Below, in pieces: positions 51,548 to 59,274 of a DNA stretch of 64,000 nt. A program made the position numbers and the translations under genes. Numbering within the stretch: position 1 is the stretch's first letter; each line of letters begins with the position of its first letter. This stretch comes from an uncultured Anaerolineales bacterium (GTDB lineage: Bacteria; Chloroflexota; Anaerolineae; Anaerolineales; UBA11858). Location: assembly GCA_964629085.1 (NCBI GenBank), contig CAZVPR010000011.1:2776-66775 (forward strand). Reading direction: 5' to 3'. The notes below the pieces were generated by a model. That model was not told the origin of the DNA. It was given only the letters and a program-made list of their open reading frames with translations, and did no database searches.

Positions 51548-51782
51548 CATATATCCATCATATTGGGTTGAGGATATAAAATTGGCGAAAAATTGCGGTA
51601 TGATCATTTTACAGGTTTGTAAGTCGTCACAAGTAAGAACTCCTTAGGGCCTAGAATCAAAAACAACACAAGTGTGATGATGTGTTTATTATTTGGTAAG
51701 AAATTTCTGGTAATGTTAATTGAAGATCTGTTGTACCTCTCTGCGAAGCAAATCCGGCGATAGATTTTTGAGTGAGCATCCC

Positions 51783-54700
51783 ATGAATACTGAAAAATCC
51801 GTAATCCGTCTCATCAAACCCCGAAATTGGTCGCTGACCATGCGCACCAAATTGATCACCACTTTTGTGCTGGTAGCGCTGATCCCCATGGCGATTCTGG
51901 CAATTTTGAATGGGCGCAATGCCCAAAACGCGCTGATCGAAGATGCCAACCAGGCGCTCTTCGCGGTTGCATCTCAGACCGCAGCCAGTATGGATACGTT
52001 CATCGACACCAACTTGAAGGGCATTGCCACCGAAGCACAGTTGCCTGTGCTGGTGGATTATTTGATCCTGCAGCACGACGATCGAGAGGGCAGCATGCCT
52101 GAAGAGGGGGTATTGTCTTTGTTGAGGGCAATCAAGAACAAAGACCCATATATCTCATCGTATGCCATCATCAACGCGGATGGCAAAGTGGTCATTGATA
52201 CACTGATGGGGGATATGGGGGTCTATAAGTCGGACCGGGAATATTTTCGCGTCTTCGATGATGGCCCTACCATCTCTAATGCCTATGTCTCGCCGGTGAT
52301 TTTTCACCCGGATAGCGGGGAGCCATATATTTATTTTAGCAGCCCAATCCTCTCTGAGCAGGGTGAATTCCTGGGTGTATTACGGGTGCGTTATCAAGCT
52401 GATGTTTTGCAGAATCTAATCGAAGACAAGAACGATCTGGCAGGCTCAGGCTCGTTTGGCGTTCTCTTTGACGAGAATCATCTTCACTTGGCGCATGGTA
52501 CTGCCTCGGATGTAAATTTTATCCCTATCATCGAATTGTCAGTTGATAAAGTGGAGCAACTCCGAGCAGTGAATCGCCTGCCGCATTTGACGGAAGATGA
52601 GTTATTCATTATGCAATTGGACGATCTAGAAGAGCATCTATCTAACCCCGAGACTCAGCGCTTCTTCGAGGCCGAAGATGTCGCCACGGGAGCGCTGGTC
52701 AATCAGGTGGCCATCGCCCAATTAAAAACCCAACCTTGGTTGGTGACCTTTTTCCAACCACAGGAAATATTTTTGGCCCCTGTAGAAGCTCAGACCCGCA
52801 CAACACTTTTCGTGGCAGCTTTCATTTCGGCCGGAGCCATTCTGGCCGCATTTGTGGTTGGTCAGGCCTTGGGGCGCCCAATTTTGCGTCTGACCAATAC
52901 GGTGACCCGATTCACAGGCGGAGATTTGGATGCGCGTACACGCATCGATTCTAAAGATGAAATCGGAATCCTGGCATCCAGTTTCAACATATTGGCACAA
53001 CAGGTTGGTACACTTTTGCGTGGGTTGGAAGAGCGAACTGCCGAATTGGAGGTAGAAGTTTTAGAACGTAGACGAGCTGAGGATGCGGCCAAAGCCAGCG
53101 AAGCCCAGTTTCGGGGCGTATTGGCAACTGCGCCGAATGCGATTGTAATTTCTGATCATGAGGGGAGAATATTGCTGGTCAATGAGCAGGTTGAGGAAGT
53201 TTTCGGTTATTCTCGGGAAGAGTTGATCGGACAACCTGTGGAGATACTACTCCCAGAGAGTCTCACGGGATTACATGCCAGTCATCGTGCCCAATATCTG
53301 GCGAAACCCTATACCCGGGCCATGGGTTACGGCCAGGATTTGCAGGGAAAACGCAAAGATGGCAGCACCTTCCCAGTGGATATCAGTCTTAGCCCAATGG
53401 AAACCAGCGATGGAACTTTGGTTACTAGCATTATTCGTGATATCACCGAGTATAAAAAATTTGAGGAAGCGCTGCAAGAAAGTGAGGAGCGCTATCGTTC
53501 GACTTCAGAATTGACATCAGATTATATTTACAGTGTGAATTTCTCTCCAGAAGGGGCCAGTGAACTCGATTGGGCTACCGAAGCATTTATCCCACTGACA
53601 GGTTTTTCCCCGGAAGAATTGGCCCAAAGAGGGGGATGGCCCAGCATTGTACACCCCGAAGATGTTAATAAGTATCATCAACAACGGGATTTATTGATAA
53701 ACACGGGCGGTTCAGATGTTGCAATTTATCGCATCGTTACCAAAGAGGGTGAGATCCGCTGGCTAGAAGATCACCGCAGCGTCGCCTGTGATGAAAAGAC
53801 TGGTCACATTCACCGAATGTTGGGAGCTGCCAAAGATATCACCGAGCGCGTAACCTCGGAACAGGCCTTACAACAAGCAAAAGATGAGGCCGAGGCAGCA
53901 AATCGTGCCAAAAGTGCCTTTCTGGCGAATATGAGTCACGAATTGCGCACTCCCTTGAATGCGATTTTAGGCTTTACCCAGTTGATGAACCGTGATCAGT
54001 CTCTGAACGCAAAACAGCGAGACCAAATCGATATTATCAGCCGCAGTGGAGAACACTTGCTGGCTTTGATCAATGATGTCCTTGCAATGTCGAAGATTGA
54101 AGCGGGGCGCATGATTTTGGAAGAATACAGCTTTGACTTACATGCACTTTTGGATGATTTGGTTGACATGCTGGCACTTCGAGCAACCGATAAACGAATT
54201 ACCATCAAAGTGGAAATGTCTGAAAACCTGCCAAAATTTGTCCATGCGGATGAAGGCAAACTGCGGCAAGTGTTGATCAATTTGCTGAGTAACGCGGTCA
54301 AGTTCACGGATCGGGGTGGGATTGTTCTGCGGGTTAGTCAGCCTCTTCGGGCTTCCCAGAATCATCTGCGGTTCGAGGTTCAGGACTCAGGCCGGGGAAT
54401 TCCTCCTGACAAGCTGGATTCGATATTCGATGCTTTTGTGCAGGTTGTTTTAGGCCAACAAGCCACCGAGGGGACCGGTTTAGGATTGGCTCTAAGCCGA
54501 CAATTTGTCAATCTGATGGGCGGCGATATCCACGTAACCAGTGACCTCAACGTAGGCTCGGTTTTTAGTTTTGAAATCCCGGTGATTTTTTCTGCTGAGA
54601 GTGAAATAGACTTTGATTTTTCTAAGCGACGTATTGTGGGCATCAACAGCGACCACGATTATCGCATTTTGATCGCCGAAGATCATCAAGAGAGCCGACA

Positions 54701-55298
54701 GTTGTTGGTTGAGTTATTGAAACCCAATGATTTTCAAATTCGAGAAGCATCAAATGGCCTCGAAGCTATTGACCAGTGGAAATCCTGGCAGCCTGACCTG
54801 ATTTTGATGGATATGCAAATGCCTGTGATGGATGGATATGCGGCTATTCGCCACATTAAAAGATCACCGGGAGGAGAAAAAACGGTCATAATCGCCATCA
54901 CAGCCAGCGCTTTCGAGGAAGACCGTGAGCATATTTTTGTCGAAGGAGCTGATGATTTTGTGCGTAAGCCATTTCGGGATGAGACCATATACGAAAAACT
55001 GGCAGACCATTTGAATGTCGATTTGCTATATGAGTCCGTTGAGCCTGATTCTGTTTCTCAACCATCAGCCAATCTCGATGGATTGCTCGCTCCTACTTTT
55101 TTGAATGAAATCCCGGAGCATTTGTTGCTGGATTTGAAACGGGCCGCCATTCTGGCCGATATGATCAAAGTAGAGACACTGATCGAAGAGATTAGATTGC
55201 ATAATGATGAGATTGCCGCTGCATTAGGCAAGTACGCTGAGGATTTCAAATATAATAAGATAATCGAGGTTATCCAATCTTCGGGAGTTACACAATGA
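51783..55298 (+). CDS. Hybrid sensor histidine kinase (periplasmic Cache-like sensor, HAMP, 2x PAS, HisKA, HATPase, REC, C-terminal helical tail)
   Basis: TM1 (LITTFVLVALIPMAILAIL), ~270-aa extracytoplasmic region, TM2, HAMP (FTGGDLDARTRIDSKDEIGILASSFN), PAS repeats, H-box SHELRTPLNAILGF, GTGLGLALSRQFV, receiver domain (ILIAEDHQ...LMDMQMPVMDG...KPF). The start is uncertain (ATG 51783 or 51840). Confidence 0.88.
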   Translation: MNTEKSVIRLIKPRNWSLTMRTKLITTFVLVALIPMAILAILNGRNAQNALIEDANQALFAVASQTAASMDTFIDTNLKGIATEAQLPVLVDYLILQHDDREGSMPEEGVLSLLRAIKNKDPYISSYAIINADGKVVIDTLMGDMGVYKSDREYFRVFDDGPTISNAYVSPVIFHPDSGEPYIYFSSPILSEQGEFLGVLRVRYQADVLQNLIEDKNDLAGSGSFGVLFDENHLHLAHGTASDVNFIPIIELSVDKVEQLRAVNRLPHLTEDELFIMQLDDLEEHLSNPETQRFFEAEDVATGALVNQVAIAQLKTQPWLVTFFQPQEIFLAPVEAQTRTTLFVAAFISAGAILAAFVVGQALGRPILRLTNTVTRFTGGDLDARTRIDSKDEIGILASSFNILAQQVGTLLRGLEERTAELEVEVLERRRAEDAAKASEAQFRGVLATAPNAIVISDHEGRILLVNEQVEEVFGYSREELIGQPVEILLPESLTGLHASHRAQYLAKPYTRAMGYGQDLQGKRKDGSTFPVDISLSPMETSDGTLVTSIIRDITEYKKFEEALQESEERYRSTSELTSDYIYSVNFSPEGASELDWATEAFIPLTGFSPEELAQRGGWPSIVHPEDVNKYHQQRDLLINTGGSDVAIYRIVTKEGEIRWLEDHRSVACDEKTGHIHRMLGAAKDITERVTSEQALQQAKDEAEAANRAKSAFLANMSHELRTPLNAILGFTQLMNRDQSLNAKQRDQIDIISRSGEHLLALINDVLAMSKIEAGRMILEEYSFDLHALLDDLVDMLALRATDKRITIKVEMSENLPKFVHADEGKLRQVLINLLSNAVKFTDRGGIVLRVSQPLRASQNHLRFEVQDSGRGIPPDKLDSIFDAFVQVVLGQQATEGTGLGLALSRQFVNLMGGDIHVTSDLNVGSVFSFEIPVIFSAESEIDFDFSKRRIVGINSDHDYRILIAEDHQESRQLLVELLKPNDFQIREASNGLEAIDQWKSWQPDLILMDMQMPVMDGYAAIRHIKRSPGGEKTVIIAITASAFEEDREHIFVEGADDFVRKPFRDETIYEKLADHLNVDLLYESVEPDSVSQPSANLDGLLAPTFLNEIPEHLLLDLKRAAILADMIKVETLIEEIRLHNDEIAAALGKYAEDFKYNKIIEVIQSSGVTQ

Positions 55299-56626
55299 GC
55301 GTTACAACGACAAAAGGCGAGATCTTGATTGTTGATGATACCCCGGCGAATCTGCGATTGTTAGCAGGAATGCTCTCTGAGCAGCATTTTCGTGTGCGCC
55401 CTGTCTCGGATGGGGAATCGGCATTGAAGGCTGTGCAAGCCTCGGCGCCAGATTTAATTTTATTAGATATCAGCATGCCGGGGATGAACGGGTATGAGAT
55501 TGCGCAACAATTGAAATCTGACAAAACTACCCGTGACATCCCAATTATTTTTATCAGTGCACTAAACGAAGTATTGGATAAAGTCAAAGCCTTCGAAGTC
55601 GGTGGTGTTGATTACATCACGAAACCGTTCCACTTCGAAGAAGTATTGGCACGGGTAGAAACACATCTAACGTTGCGAGAATTGCAACGCCAGTTGGAAG
55701 ATGCCAACGCGATGCTTGATGCTCGTGTTCAAGAACGTACCCAGGACTTAGTCGATCTCAATCGATCAGCATATCGATTTGTCCCGCACGTTTTGCTGGA
55801 GCATCTAAACAAAGATAGCCTTGTCGATGTTGAATTAGGAGATCAGGTGCAAGGAGAGATGTCCGTCATGTTCGCGGATATTCGCGGCTTTACTGCTCTT
55901 GCTGAGCCCTTGACGCCGCAAGAGAGTTTCGGCTATCTTAACAATTATCTTGGAAAGGTTGGGCCTATCATTCGAGAAAATCGTGGTTTTGTGGATAAAT
56001 ATTTAGGCGATGGATTGATGGCTGTATTCCCTAAAGGACCTGATGATGCCGTCAAGGCTTCCGTGGCAATTCAATCAACATTAGAGGTATATAACAGGCG
56101 TTTGAGCGAGCAAAATTTGAATCCAATACAGGTGGGAATTGGCATCAACACGGGCAAGGTCATGCTGGGAATCCTTGGTGAGCAAGAACGTCTACAGGGA
56201 ACCGTAATCTCAGATGCCGTCAATGTTGCTTCACGCTTGGAAGGCCTGACCAAACTATACGATATTAAAATCGCCGTTTGCCAAGGAACGATGAAAGCAA
56301 TCCAAAATTCCGCGAATCATAATTTTCGTTTCATGGATCGGGTGCAAGCCCAAGGCCGTTTGGGAACAATGAATGTGTATGAATTGTTTGATAGCGATCC
56401 GTTAGAAATTCGGGAATTAAAAACGAATACAAAACCGGAATTCGAATGTGGTCTGGAATTGTATTATCAAGGACAATTTGCGGAGGCGGGGGTTGAGCTT
56501 GGCAAAGTATTGAAGTTGAATCCCGATGATAAAGTAGCTCAAATTCACATGAAAAGAGCAGGACATTACATGGCCAGCGGTGTCCCTGACAATTGGACAG
56601 GAGTCGAACCTTTAGAATTTAAATAG
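55295..56626 (+). CDS. Response regulator with class III adenylate/guanylate cyclase output and a C-terminal TPR-like tail
   Basis: REC (ILIVDDTPANLRLL, DLILLDISMPGMNG, KPF) plus a cyclase domain (SVMFADIRGFTAL, GDGLMAVF, IGINTGKVMLGILG, VNVASRLE). ATGA overlap with the kinase stop. Confidence 0.9.
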   Translation: MSVTTTKGEILIVDDTPANLRLLAGMLSEQHFRVRPVSDGESALKAVQASAPDLILLDISMPGMNGYEIAQQLKSDKTTRDIPIIFISALNEVLDKVKAFEVGGVDYITKPFHFEEVLARVETHLTLRELQRQLEDANAMLDARVQERTQDLVDLNRSAYRFVPHVLLEHLNKDSLVDVELGDQVQGEMSVMFADIRGFTALAEPLTPQESFGYLNNYLGKVGPIIRENRGFVDKYLGDGLMAVFPKGPDDAVKASVAIQSTLEVYNRRLSEQNLNPIQVGIGINTGKVMLGILGEQERLQGTVISDAVNVASRLEGLTKLYDIKIAVCQGTMKAIQNSANHNFRFMDRVQAQGRLGTMNVYELFDSDPLEIRELKTNTKPEFECGLELYYQGQFAEAGVELGKVLKLNPDDKVAQIHMKRAGHYMASGVPDNWTGVEPLEFK

Positions 56627-56631
56627 TTTCT

Positions 56632-57360
56632 TTATGCTTTTTCCCAAACCTGATATAAACCAAGATTCCCTTCCTGGCCATCGGAATAAAATGATTTTGT
56701 AATAATGAAATTTGACTCTTGGGCTAGTGTGTTTAATTCATCCTCGCTGAAATGATGGACATAGCGCAGTCCATAACCGCCGCGTCGCCAATCCAAAAGA
56801 TAATCACCCGAATCAACTTGATCAACGATTAGTCCAATTTTTTCCCATGGTTGGATTCTGGTTTTCAATCGCGGGCTGTTGAGAAATTGCCAGTTTGAGT
56901 GAATAAAGCGACCCGCTGGAGTTAACACCGTATGGATATTTCGGAGAGTTTTTAGATGCAGCTCACGGCTGGGCAAATGATGTAAAGCAGCAAAGGCCAG
57001 GATAATGTCGAATTGTGATTTTTGGATTGTAAATGGTGAAATCCAATCGGGAATTGAGAGATCTGCCCTAACGAAGGAGACGTTCGGGGAGTTTGCGCTT
57101 CCTGCGTTGGCTACCTCCAGCAGTTCGGCGCTGAAGTCAACGCCGATATACTGCCCTTCGTGGTCGCGCTCCACAAGGTTTTGGGATAGTTCTCCGTTGC
57201 CGCAGCCTAAATCCAGGATGTTTGCCTTGGGTGGGATGCTCTCTAAAACTTGCGCTACCCCAGGTTGCAGACGTTCACGCGTCGCTGAAAATTGTAAAGC
57301 GAAGGTCTGGTAAAATTGCTGGTTGAGTTCGATCAATTTTTTAACAATTTCCAAATGCAT
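56632..57360 (-). CDS. Class I SAM-dependent methyltransferase, Trm9/ALKBH8-methyltransferase-like
   Basis: FSATRERLQPGV...ILDLGCGNG (motif I), FDIILAFAALHHLPSRE, C-terminal LRYVHHFSEDEL...SFYSDGQEGNLGLYQVWEKA. ATG 57360 (MHLEIVKKL). The 64-aa Arg/Ser-rich extension in the ORF track overlaps the Elp3 5' end and was rejected. Confidence 0.75.
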   Translation of the reverse strand: MHLEIVKKLIELNQQFYQTFALQFSATRERLQPGVAQVLESIPPKANILDLGCGNGELSQNLVERDHEGQYIGVDFSAELLEVANAGSANSPNVSFVRADLSIPDWISPFTIQKSQFDIILAFAALHHLPSRELHLKTLRNIHTVLTPAGRFIHSNWQFLNSPRLKTRIQPWEKIGLIVDQVDSGDYLLDWRRGGYGLRYVHHFSEDELNTLAQESNFIITKSFYSDGQEGNLGLYQVWEKA

Positions 57361-57388
57361 GGGAGCATTATAGCAGTCTAGTGATGTG

Positions 57389-58987
57389 ATGAGTAGAGAA
57401 GAACAAGCCTGGCTAGAGGCCCGTGAAATAACTCCCCAAAAACGTGATCTGGCTCGGCGCGCCTTGGAGGATATTCGAGGTGGGCGCGAAGTTTTCGCTT
57501 CCTTGCGCCGTAATCCCTTGCCGGGTGGAGAGGGATTTTTGAATAAGGCCACGTTGGTGGCAGTTTATCGCGAGTTGGTTGCTGAGGGCATATGGGAAGA
57601 AGATCAGGCTTTGATGAACAAAATCCGGCTCAAACCCACCCGCACACTTTCAGGGGTTACAACTGTTACGGTATTGACAAAACCCTATCCTTGTCCGGGA
57701 AAGTGTATATTTTGCCCCACAGATGTGCGCATGCCCAAGAGCTATTTACCAGATGAGCCTGGGGCCATGCGGGCTTTACATCATGAGTTCGACCCCTTTG
57801 CGCAGGTAGAAGCGCGCATTGATGCGTTACATGCGGTTGGACACCCAACAGATAAGGTCGAGTTGTTGGTGCTTGGGGGAACCTGGAGCGCATACCGCAA
57901 GGATTACCAGGAGTGGTTTTTGAAGCGTTGTTTCGATGCCATGAATGGCGTTGAATTAAAAACTTTGGCTGAAGCCCAAACATATAATGAAAAAGCAGCT
58001 CATCGCAATGTGGGCTTGGTGGTTGAAACCCGGCCAGATCATGTCAATCAGCAGGAAATTGCTTGGATGAGAAAGCTGGGGGTTACCAAAGTTCAAATTG
58101 GTGCTCAAAGTCTGGATGATCGTATTTTAGAATTAAATAAGCGCGGCCACACGGTTGATGATCTTCGTGCTGCACTGGCATTGTTGCGTGCTGCTGGTTT
58201 CAAGGTGGTTTTGCACTGGATGCCTAATCTGCTTGGCGCGAGTTTGGAGTCTGACCGTGAGGATTTTGGACGCCTATGGCAGGGCCTGGCTCCTGACGAG
58301 CTGAAAATATACCCAACCCAACTATTGGCCAATGCTGATTTATATGCTTATTGGGCGAGAGGGGAATATCAACCCTATGAGACCGATGAATTAGTACAGT
58401 TGATTGCTGATATCAAAACTACCATACCACGCTATTGCCGAGTCAATCGGGTTATTCGAGATATTCCATCAACGAACGTTGTCGAAGGGAATAAACGCAC
58501 CAGTTTACGACAAGATGTACATCTGGAACTGGCCCAACGTGGGCAGCGTTGCCAGTGTATTCGCTGCCGTGAGGTACGTGGTCAAGAACTCAAGTCAGAG
58601 TTACTAGTGTTCGATGATTTAGTATACAATGCAGATTTTGCAGAAGAGCATTTTCTATCCTATGGCACCCCGGATGACAAATTAGCTGGATTTTTGCGTT
58701 TATCATTACCTCAGCCAGAAGCGCCTGAAACTGGTTTAGCCGATATTGATCAGGCTGCCATAATTCGTGAAGTGCATGTTTACGGGCAATCCTTAGGGGT
58801 GGGACAGGAGAGTGATGGAGCAGCACAACACTCGGGGTTGGGAACTAAATTGCTCCACCAAGCCGCTGAGATATCTCGAGAGCGAGGATTTAAAAAACTA
58901 GTGGTTATCTCTGCTGTGGGAACACGTGAATATTATTTAGAGCGTGGGTTTGAACGCGGGTTATTGTATTTGATCCAGGAATTGTGA
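57389..58987 (+). CDS. elp3: Elp3 homologue (radical SAM + GNAT; tRNA uridine(34) carboxymethyl-forming enzyme family)
   Basis: KPTRTLSGVTTVTVLTKPYPCPGKCIFCP radical-SAM cluster motif. Elp3-type central region (VETRPDHV, KVQIGAQSLDD). C-terminal GNAT IREVHVYGQSLGVG...QHSGLGTKLL...VISAVGTREYYLERGF. Confidence 0.88.
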   Translation: MSREEQAWLEAREITPQKRDLARRALEDIRGGREVFASLRRNPLPGGEGFLNKATLVAVYRELVAEGIWEEDQALMNKIRLKPTRTLSGVTTVTVLTKPYPCPGKCIFCPTDVRMPKSYLPDEPGAMRALHHEFDPFAQVEARIDALHAVGHPTDKVELLVLGGTWSAYRKDYQEWFLKRCFDAMNGVELKTLAEAQTYNEKAAHRNVGLVVETRPDHVNQQEIAWMRKLGVTKVQIGAQSLDDRILELNKRGHTVDDLRAALALLRAAGFKVVLHWMPNLLGASLESDREDFGRLWQGLAPDELKIYPTQLLANADLYAYWARGEYQPYETDELVQLIADIKTTIPRYCRVNRVIRDIPSTNVVEGNKRTSLRQDVHLELAQRGQRCQCIRCREVRGQELKSELLVFDDLVYNADFAEEHFLSYGTPDDKLAGFLRLSLPQPEAPETGLADIDQAAIIREVHVYGQSLGVGQESDGAAQHSGLGTKLLHQAAEISRERGFKKLVVISAVGTREYYLERGFERGLLYLIQEL

Positions 58988-59058: not shown

Positions 59059-59274
59059 TTATTTGGTTGGGAAATTCTGACGAACGGATTTCCCAGGCTG
59101 GAACCATATCACTAAGAATGGTCCCAAAATCGGAAGTACTAGCGCAAATAACCCCCAGGCAGTGAAAGCCAAAAGGGAGAGTTCCCTGCGGCGAAGATAA
59201 AATGCCGCCAGCAAATTCATGCTAAGTGCACACCCAAAGAGCAATATTTGCATTAGGTCTGGCGCGATTGGCAT
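59059..59274 (-). CDS. Small two-TM membrane protein (PLDc_N-like tail motif)
   Basis: 71 aa, two hydrophobic helices. LVLPILGPFLVIWF resembles the PLD N-terminal small-protein family motif. No clear SD. Confidence 0.4.
   Translation of the reverse strand: MPIAPDLMQILLFGCALSMNLLAAFYLRRRELSLLAFTAWGLFALVLPILGPFLVIWFQPGKSVRQNFPTK

Follow-up and report, generated by a model that had tools for sequence, protein, structure and literature searches.

What does an Elp3 protein do in a bacterium, and why should a methyltransferase gene stand beside its gene, facing the opposite way? This question is raised by a 64,000-nucleotide stretch of DNA (referred to below, at its full length, as the window) from an uncultured Anaerolineales bacterium (contig CAZVPR010000011.1), which encodes an Elp3 homologue combining radical S-adenosylmethionine (SAM) and GNAT domains and, divergently, a class I SAM-dependent methyltransferase (MTase). 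In eukaryotes the route to the modified wobble uridine (U34) of tRNA, in which Elongator is followed by Trm9-Trm112 or ALKBH8, is well established, and 5-methoxycarbonylmethyluridine at this position (mcm5U34) is considered to be a modification of eukaryotes and archaea. Comparison of the sequences suggests that the two bacterial genes probably make up a self-contained two-gene module for the tRNA wobble uridine, in which Elp3 would be the synthase of 5-carboxymethyluridine (cm5U34) and the MTase a Trm9-like carboxyl O-methyltransferase, with mcm5U34 as the product.

The gene pair and its Elp3

The Elp3 gene occupies positions 57389-58987 on the forward strand (532 aa; translation could also begin at an in-frame GTG at 57386), and the MTase gene positions 56632-57360 on the reverse strand (242 aa). 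Translation of the two open reading frames (ORFs) agrees with the earlier note on this DNA, which had described a divergent pair 28 bp apart: the gap between the two start codons is exactly 57361-57388. All the motifs quoted in that note recur in the translations, KPYPCPGKCIFCP, IREVHVYGQSLGVG, QHSGLGTKLL and VISAVGTREYYLERGF in Elp3 and FSATRERLQPGV, LDLGCGNG, FDIILAFAALHHLPSRE, RYVHHFSEDEL and SFYSDGQEGNLGLYQVWEKA in the MTase, and the coordinates of motifs and sub-features given below were checked against the same two translations. The MTase is taken to start at the ATG at 57360 because 27 homologues all begin at the same Met; a longer ORF, 56632-57552(-), which has a GTG start and would overlap the beginning of Elp3 by about 165 bp, is an artefact of ORF listing according to the homologue alignment. 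The 28-bp spacer cannot hold two complete promoters, and a sigma-70 promoter scan found no sigma-70-like match in it. In relatives the two start codons stand a median of 66 bp apart, the extremes being -21 and more than 200 bp, and in 49 of 68 loci the distance does not exceed 150 bp; the length of the spacer varies, and the divergent orientation is its only conserved property. Both genes may be co-regulated through their shared upstream region, as the earlier note had proposed together with overlapping promoters.

The identity of the 57389-58987(+) product as Elp3 is practically certain. The curated NCBIfam model TIGR01211 matches it with 496.4 bits against a cutoff of 350 (E=8e-149) and covers residues 70-529 of 532, while Pfam finds, in this order, Radical_SAM, Radical_SAM_C and GNAT (Acetyltransf_1). 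Its best match in the PDB is Elp3 of Dehalococcoides mccartyi (DmcElp3, 5L7J; E=2e-116), followed by Elp3 of Methanocaldococcus infernus (6IAZ) and the Elp3 subunits of eukaryotic Elongator. The three cysteines of the radical-SAM [4Fe-4S] motif CPGKCIFC (C102, C106 and C109; 57692-57715(+)) align to C23, C27 and C30 of DmcElp3 and are invariant in an alignment of 16 diverse Elp3 sequences from several phyla, as are Q480, H481 and G485 of the acetyl-CoA-binding GNAT motif QHSGLG (Q480-G485; 58826-58843(+)). The same invariance is seen for K156, K272, E461 and Y515, which align to K77, K193, E386 and Y441 of DmcElp3, residues whose functional importance was defined in DmcElp3 and yeast and which have been tested by mutation in the Dehalococcoides protein (Lin et al. 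2019). The earlier description of a full-length Elp3 with a CX3CX2C site and a C-terminal GNAT domain is thus borne out by the curated model, the Pfam domains and the conserved catalytic residues, and the protein looks catalytically complete. It also possesses an N-terminal extension of approximately 80 aa (57389-57631(+)), the alignment beginning at its residue 82 with 5L7J and at residue 62 with 6IAZ; archaeal and eukaryotic Elp3 also possess this region, which in them has been associated with tRNA binding (Lin et al. 2019).

Two aspects of nomenclature and distribution should be mentioned. First, the NCBI product name for Elp3, 'tRNA uridine(34) 5-carboxymethylaminomethyl modification radical SAM/GNAT enzyme', describes the 5-carboxymethylaminomethyl (cmnm5) chemistry of the MnmEG type and not the cm5U of Elp3. 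Second, the view that bacterial Elp3 is a rarity, which the earlier note shared, does not hold in current databases, in which a search with the Dehalococcoides protein yields at least 7,996 relatives at E<=1e-30. A 2020 review by Elp3 specialists considered bacterial Elp3 to be confined to Dehalococcoides, and a 2026 paper describes Elp3 alone as conserved in "numerous bacteria".

Conservation of the linkage

The adjacency of the two genes was surveyed from both sides. Starting from the MTase, 80 loci were obtained by scanning genomes with its profile. Elp3 is the immediate upstream neighbour, on the other strand, in 69 of them; of the remaining 11, six have less than 1 kb of upstream sequence, which leaves 74 informative loci and a linkage of about 93% (69/74). 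Starting from Elp3, metagenomes were scanned with an alignment of diverse Elp3 sequences, again yielding 80 loci, of which the 67 with at least 800 bp upstream are informative, and the MTase is present in 54 of these (about 81%, one of the 54 being doubtful), always divergently. Linkage in related genomes, which the earlier note had named as a test of its proposal, is therefore found in both directions. The pair extends over the Chloroflexota (Anaerolineae, Dehalococcoidia and Limnocylindria), many lineages of the Patescibacteria, the Acidobacteriota (Ca. Multivorans) and the Myxococcota, and is also present in the Fermentibacteria and in a metagenome-assembled genome labelled as Gammaproteobacteria. 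Both forms of bacterial Elp3, the long (about 535 aa) and the short (about 460 aa), keep the MTase partner.

The organism of the best-matching Elp3 structure has the pair as well. In D. mccartyi (CP019867.1) the Elp3 gene (P0121) lies at L081:6001-7380(+), and a divergent gene for an MTase of 224 aa begins 43 bp upstream (L081:5283-5957(-)); this MTase scores 94 bits on the family hidden Markov model (HMM) and E=9e-15 against authentic Trm9 of Yarrowia lipolytica (YlTrm9), with the HH, VW, VPW and RYY.LY motifs aligned. A second Dehalococcoidia genome shows the same divergent arrangement, and a third is without it. Three genes away from the D. mccartyi pair are QueH, an epoxyqueuosine reductase of tRNA modification, and a GNAT acetyltransferase.

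On the one hand, it might be supposed that the MTase is an unrelated generic enzyme, placed beside Elp3 by chance or by genomic hitch-hiking and sharing no function with it. The divergent orientation means that the genes are not co-transcribed, the fold search described below is not specific, and for the MTase Pfam and NCBIfam return only generic class I models, no NCBIfam model reaching its cutoff; these two libraries are undecisive as to Trm9 identity because neither contains a Trm9-specific model. On the other hand, adjacency and orientation are kept at the above frequencies in at least five phyla while the other neighbours change, and the loci are not near-identical copies of one mobile element, since identity across the pair-bearing lineages falls to 28% for the MTase and 41% for Elp3. 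The pairwise divergences of the two proteins correlate at r=0.94 in the whole set and at 0.80 and 0.91 in subgroups (Mantel 0/999), which fits inheritance as a unit, considering that any two vertically inherited genes correlate to some degree. The MTase is, moreover, specifically related to Trm9, as discussed below. The linkage surveys and the changing neighbours effectively refute the idea of a chance neighbour, which we regard as hardly credible, and a functional coupling of the two genes is very probable.

Clustering of the neighbours across loci revealed no third gene consistently linked to the pair. In 11 loci an unrelated gene (a CysH-type reductase, a short-chain dehydrogenase/reductase or a secreted protein) is inserted between the two, and these genes were rejected as partners. 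The CysH-type insertion, an adenylylsulfate or phosphoadenylylsulfate reductase of about 250 aa with ECGLH and CC...CxxC motifs, recurs in five Anaerolineales loci (L016:9213-9971, L025:2103-2846, L026:1879-2691, L028:9126-9968 and L031:6114-6866, all on the reverse strand), where it is on the strand of Elp3. It probably belongs to unrelated sulfate assimilation.

Relationship of the methyltransferase to Trm9

The earlier note had also held that the MTase resembles Trm9 rather than a generic enzyme, and several independent comparisons point in that direction. YlTrm9, which was taken from PDB alignments and confirmed as P0241 at 100% identity, served as the phmmer query for the 5,348 ORFs with a length of 80 aa or more in the window and 80 related genome loci. 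It gave 78 matches, every one of them an Elp3-adjacent MTase of the family, and no match to at least 10 other class I MTase ORFs with motif I in this set, nor to three genuine MTases that the family HMM detects. In profile comparison with hhalign, the alignment of 67 Elp3-linked MTases with Trm9 takes in the C-terminal lid (178 columns; probability 99.5%, E=1.5e-22) and has a score of 142, where E. coli CmoM gives 80 and the control MTases 70-74. A profile of the Patescibacteria type reaches 161 against Trm9; taken over all profiles, the scores are 142-161 against Trm9, 80-87 against CmoM and 67-76 against the controls. When the PDB is searched with the Patescibacteria-type profile, Trm9 (5CM2) ranks second, at full length, with E=3e-26. 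The top match of that search, at 98.9 bits and just above Trm9, is 1VE3, an uncharacterised archaeal MTase (PH0226 of Pyrococcus horikoshii); this protein may be an archaeal relative of the Elp3-linked family with its structure already solved.

The best-scoring characterised relatives of the MTase are all carboxyl O-methyltransferases, namely Trm9, juvenile hormone acid MTase, BioC and Tam. Many of the bacterial proteins share with genuine fungal Trm9 the label 'tRNA (uracil-5-)-methyltransferase TRM9' in the JGI pipeline, which means that the similarity is already detectable by automatic annotation. The family comprises 984 clusters (50% identity) at E<=1e-30 among 1.84 billion representatives. 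In the databases the partner MTases are named just 'class I SAM-dependent methyltransferase'.

Individual residues were compared as well, and were counted in a 67-member alignment of the bacterial family, in 15 full-length fungal Trm9 sequences and in 10 outgroup MTases. In Saccharomyces cerevisiae Trm9 (ScTrm9) the residues R29, D72, H116, W145, W168, R241, Y243 and N271 are required for function, R29A leaving about 5% of the activity and H116A none (Létoquart et al. 2015). Six of these eight are kept in at least 64 of the 67 bacterial members. The Arg of the FSATR motif (57277-57291(-)), R28, corresponds to ScTrm9 R29 and is invariant (67/67), and upstream of it Y17, the equivalent of Y18, is found in 66/67. 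The His pair H127 and H128 (56977-56982(-)), equivalent to H115 and H116, is conserved in 65/67 and 67/67, and W157, the equivalent of W145, which follows strand 5, in 66/67. The lid β-hairpin, which runs from DYLLDW to RYVHHF (residues 186-204; 56749-56805(-)) and is defined by the alignment and the predicted strands, supplies W191 (W168 in ScTrm9; 64/67), R199 (R241; 66/67), Y200 (Y242) and H202 (H244). The family-invariant SAM-binding motif I, LDLGCGNG (residues 49-56; 57193-57216(-)), and the acidic SAM-binding residue D75 (D72 in ScTrm9; 67/67) complete the picture, both being traits of class I enzymes and not specific to Trm9. Fungal Trm9 has the same active-site residues as the bacterial family, with the equivalents of R28 and of the His pair in 15/15, and in all 10 outgroup MTases the His at the first position of the pair, the equivalent of W157 and the Asp of the lid are absent.

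A neighbour-joining tree (66 sequences, 229 columns, 200 bootstraps) was built with E. coli CmoM, BioC, Tam, CmoA, CmoB, UbiG and UbiE and three control MTases from the loci as outgroups. Fungal Trm9 is monophyletic (100%) and nested inside the bacterial family; a bacterial family without Trm9 is recovered in at most 1.5% of the bootstrap replicates. The family together with Trm9 is separated from all outgroups in 82.5% of replicates when one long-branch rogue control is removed, and in 98% when that control is allowed on either side, which supports the affinity to Trm9 that had been predicted. Within the family, clade A (89-92%) contains the window's MTase and the Chloroflexota type together with Acidobacteriota, Myxococcota and a few Patescibacteria, and its sister, clade B (84%), contains most members of the Patescibacteria type, the Dehalococcoidia type and true Trm9. 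A long-branch rogue stands beside the Dehalococcoidia sequences: L037:14566-15378(-), a second MTase (hhalign score 70 against the family, over 188 columns) in a Longilinea locus that already carries the pair. The MTase of the window is placed in the Trm9-containing family, in a divergent sister clade of Trm9, because the reciprocal search, the profile and PDB comparisons, the residues and the tree, together with the JGI label, agree on it.

A number of observations weigh against a Trm9 function for this particular MTase and for clade A. Eukaryotic Trm9 requires Trm112, and pattern and phmmer probes with E. coli YcaR (PF03966) detected no significant Trm112-like partner among 25,249 ORFs (about 2 Mb; best E=0.027), though an unlinked copy may exist elsewhere in the genome. 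Five family members (L024, L055, L060, L061 and L075) have no Elp3 within the 2.7-10 kb upstream or elsewhere in the locus; they may be split pairs or a paralogous offshoot. The family HMM recognizes two of them, L055 and L061, at about 200 bits, yet authentic Trm9 does not hit them. The direct similarity of the window's MTase to YlTrm9 is weak (E=1e-4), as compared with 4e-19 to 1e-13 for the Patescibacteria members, which therefore bridge the window's clade to Trm9. In a single-sequence search of the PDB with the window's MTase, Trm9 (5CM2_Z) appears at about rank 41 (E=0.002), and with the profile of the window's own clade it ranks 14th. The AlphaFold2 model of the MTase (pLDDT, the predicted local distance difference test, 91.4; strands at residues 186-191 and 197-202) retrieves 5CM2_Z as the fifth Foldseek match (TM-score 0.75, normalised by the target); the E-values of many unrelated class I MTases are equivalent, and the search with this predicted fold does not separate Trm9 from them. 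The tree, made by a simple distance method, contains fungal sequences as its authentic Trm9 and neither archaeal Trm9 nor ALKBH8, and it places the window's MTase outside the clade that holds true Trm9.

The residues themselves contribute to these objections. Tyr243 of ScTrm9 is not kept in the window, where V201 takes its position; Val, Ala and Cys predominate here in the 67-member alignment (10 Val, 9 Cys and one Ala for clade A in the tree alignment), and Tyr is kept in 10/18 bacterial members of clade B and in 15/15 Trm9 sequences. Asn271, which in a docking model of Trm9 reads O2 and N3 of the uracil (Létoquart et al. 2015), has its likely equivalent in N232 of the window, just before the last strand, but the column is divided between Asn (19) and Arg (21) in the Chloroflexota type and the alignment of the C-terminal strand is ambiguous. 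Clade A also has invariant features of its own that Trm9 lacks, among them the RIQPW and SDG motifs and a YQVW C-terminus. The Val in place of Tyr243 and the uncertain equivalent of Asn271 leave room for an altered specificity in clade A.

Considering these differences and the low direct similarity, the MTase might be coupled to Elp3 without performing the Trm9 reaction: it could methylate the Elp3 product or the anticodon loop at another atom, act on a cm5-derived intermediate that these bacteria alone possess, or have a specificity that in clade A has shifted away from that of clade B and Trm9. Against this, the proposed carboxylate-binding and base-stacking residues (Y17, R28, H127/H128, W157, W191 and R199) show no variation in clade A, clades A and B alike are accompanied by a divergent Elp3, and the closest characterised relatives methylate carboxyl groups. 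Such a different reaction is therefore considered unlikely, albeit the most serious of the rivals, and methyl esterification of cm5U34 is preferred.

Predicted pathway and its relation to known systems

According to the preferred scheme, Elp3 would bind tRNA and cleave SAM at its [4Fe-4S] cluster to generate a 5'-deoxyadenosyl radical, and its GNAT domain would take the acetyl unit from acetyl-CoA, whose attachment to C5 of U34 would give cm5U34. The Trm9-like MTase would then use a further SAM to methyl-esterify the cm5 carboxylate to mcm5U34, with the carboxylate and the uracil ring held by Tyr17, Arg28, His127/His128, Trp157, Trp191 and Arg199. We infer this substrate and this product, as well as the independence of the MTase from Trm112, from the relationships described above. 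For the first step there is biochemical precedent in the literature: cm5U is formed in vitro by archaeal Elp3 on its own, and DmcElp3 hydrolyses acetyl-CoA when triggered by tRNA.

A further objection to the scheme comes from the 2020 review, according to which direct evidence for cm5U derivatives (xcm5U34) in bacteria is lacking. It could accordingly be argued that the target of the pair is not U34 of tRNA, but another RNA, a protein lysine or a small molecule, and that the likeness to Elongator is just ancestral. In vitro, DmcElp3 is weakly active and binds tRNA with reduced affinity, and the canonical bacterial route to modified U34 is that of MnmE/MnmG. However, the catalytic and tRNA-linked residues of Elp3 are all conserved, the window's Elp3 bears the extension associated with tRNA binding, and the partner MTase retains the Trm9 residues that contact the modified uridine. 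A target other than tRNA U34 is for these reasons thought highly improbable, and the formation of mcm5U34 remains the favoured outcome.

A bolder proposal can be attached to it. The pair might represent a minimal, Trm112-independent two-gene Elongator pathway that makes mcm5U34 in many bacterial phyla. The position of fungal Trm9 within bacterial clade B would then mean either that the bacterial radiation is ancestral to Trm9 and gave rise to the eukaryotic enzyme, or that the whole module was transferred from one domain to another. In this full form the proposal is speculative and rather doubtful.

The literature bears on how new these observations are. The earlier note knew of no Elp3-Trm9 module described in bacteria, and this part stands: no description of a bacterial Trm9 homologue or of a bacterial Elp3-Trm9 pair was found in the full-text literature, the coverage of which is incomplete. 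It has to be qualified by the JGI 'TRM9' labels that exist already and by the clustering of the Elp3 and Trm9 genes in the archaeon Sulfolobus solfataricus, noted in 2008. The breadth and the conserved architecture of the bacterial pair appear to be undescribed, whereas the predicted chemistry itself is not new, since an archaeal precedent exists. Specialists in tRNA modification may be expected to be moderately surprised.

The conserved Trm9-like partner in at least five phyla, D. mccartyi included, provides genomic evidence for placing bacterial Elp3 in a tRNA pathway, whose end product would, on the same evidence, probably be the methyl ester mcm5U rather than free cm5U. The open question of whether bacteria make xcm5U derivatives, and with it the role of bacterial Elp3, becomes directly testable. 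The pair also offers what is probably a stand-alone Trm9 without Trm112 for mechanistic and structural work, would lead to corrected database names for these MTases and for Elp3, and has a bearing on the evolution of the Elongator/Trm9 pathway across the three domains of life.

The surroundings of the pair in the window are unrelated to it and include BipA, PurH, a pirin, a hybrid histidine kinase, a response-regulator cyclase, glutamate dehydrogenase and GatB. The large hybrid sensor kinase at 51720-55298(+) (dCache, HAMP, two PAS, HisKA, HATPase and receiver domains) overlaps by 4 bp with a response regulator fused to an adenylate/guanylate cyclase domain at 55295-56626(+), which ends 5 bp from the stop codon of the MTase gene; the region 51720-56626(+) is likely to be a two-component-to-cyclic-nucleotide signalling operon. 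Just downstream of Elp3, 59059-59274(-) is a hydrophobic ORF of 71 aa with no Pfam match, which is not Trm112-like and is not conserved beside the pair in other loci. The 64-kb window contains no tRNA genes, and there are no mnmE, mnmG or thiolation genes among its annotated neighbours.

Among known systems, the closest parallel to the MTase is Trm9-Trm112 (ALKBH8-TRMT112 in animals; PDB 5CM2), with which it shares a class I SAM MTase fold that carries a helix at the N-terminus and a lid hairpin of two strands, the signature of Tyr, Thr-Arg, His-His, Trp, D..W and R-Y-x-H, most of which is essential in ScTrm9, and a partner of the type that synthesizes cm5U. It differs in having no linked Trm112 in the sequence sampled and in its low identity (about 24% to YlTrm9), and the window's clade further differs in the Val or Cys at Tyr243, the uncertain equivalent of Asn271, an extra RIQPW segment and another C-terminus. 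The archaeal systems, such as HVO_2888 and HVO_1032 of Haloferax volcanii, likewise consist of an Elp3 without Elp1, 2, 4, 5 and 6 accompanied by a Trm9-type MTase, but archaeal Trm9 works with Trm112. In H. volcanii mcm5U34 is documented and Trm9-Trm112 is present, and a 2017 review of Trm112 reported archaeal Trm9 orthologues solely from the Sulfolobales and Halobacteriales. DmcElp3 has the same catalytic residues as the window's Elp3 and is its closest solved structure; it is, however, a short form (459 aa) without the N-terminal extension, and the MTase beside it is of the Trm9-proximal clade-B type.

Two bacterial systems act on the same nucleotide by other means. E. coli CmoM (SmtA) is, like the MTase proposed here, a bacterial class I SAM MTase that esterifies the side-chain carboxyl of a wobble uridine, converting uridine 5-oxyacetic acid (cmo5U34) to its methyl ester (mcmo5U34). 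It acts downstream of CmoA and CmoB and not of Elp3, and it lacks the His-His and Trp signature. The identification of the window's MTase as CmoM was rejected, since phmmer finds no match, the hhalign scores (80 and 87) are at the generic level, with the alignment to the full family profile limited to the Rossmann core, and CmoM falls among the outgroups of the tree. MnmE/MnmG, which produce cmnm5U or 5-aminomethyluridine (nm5U), share with the Elp3 pathway the target, C5 of U34, and are unrelated to it in enzymes and in chemistry, being a GTPase and a flavin adenine dinucleotide (FAD)/folate system, neither of which is encoded in the window.

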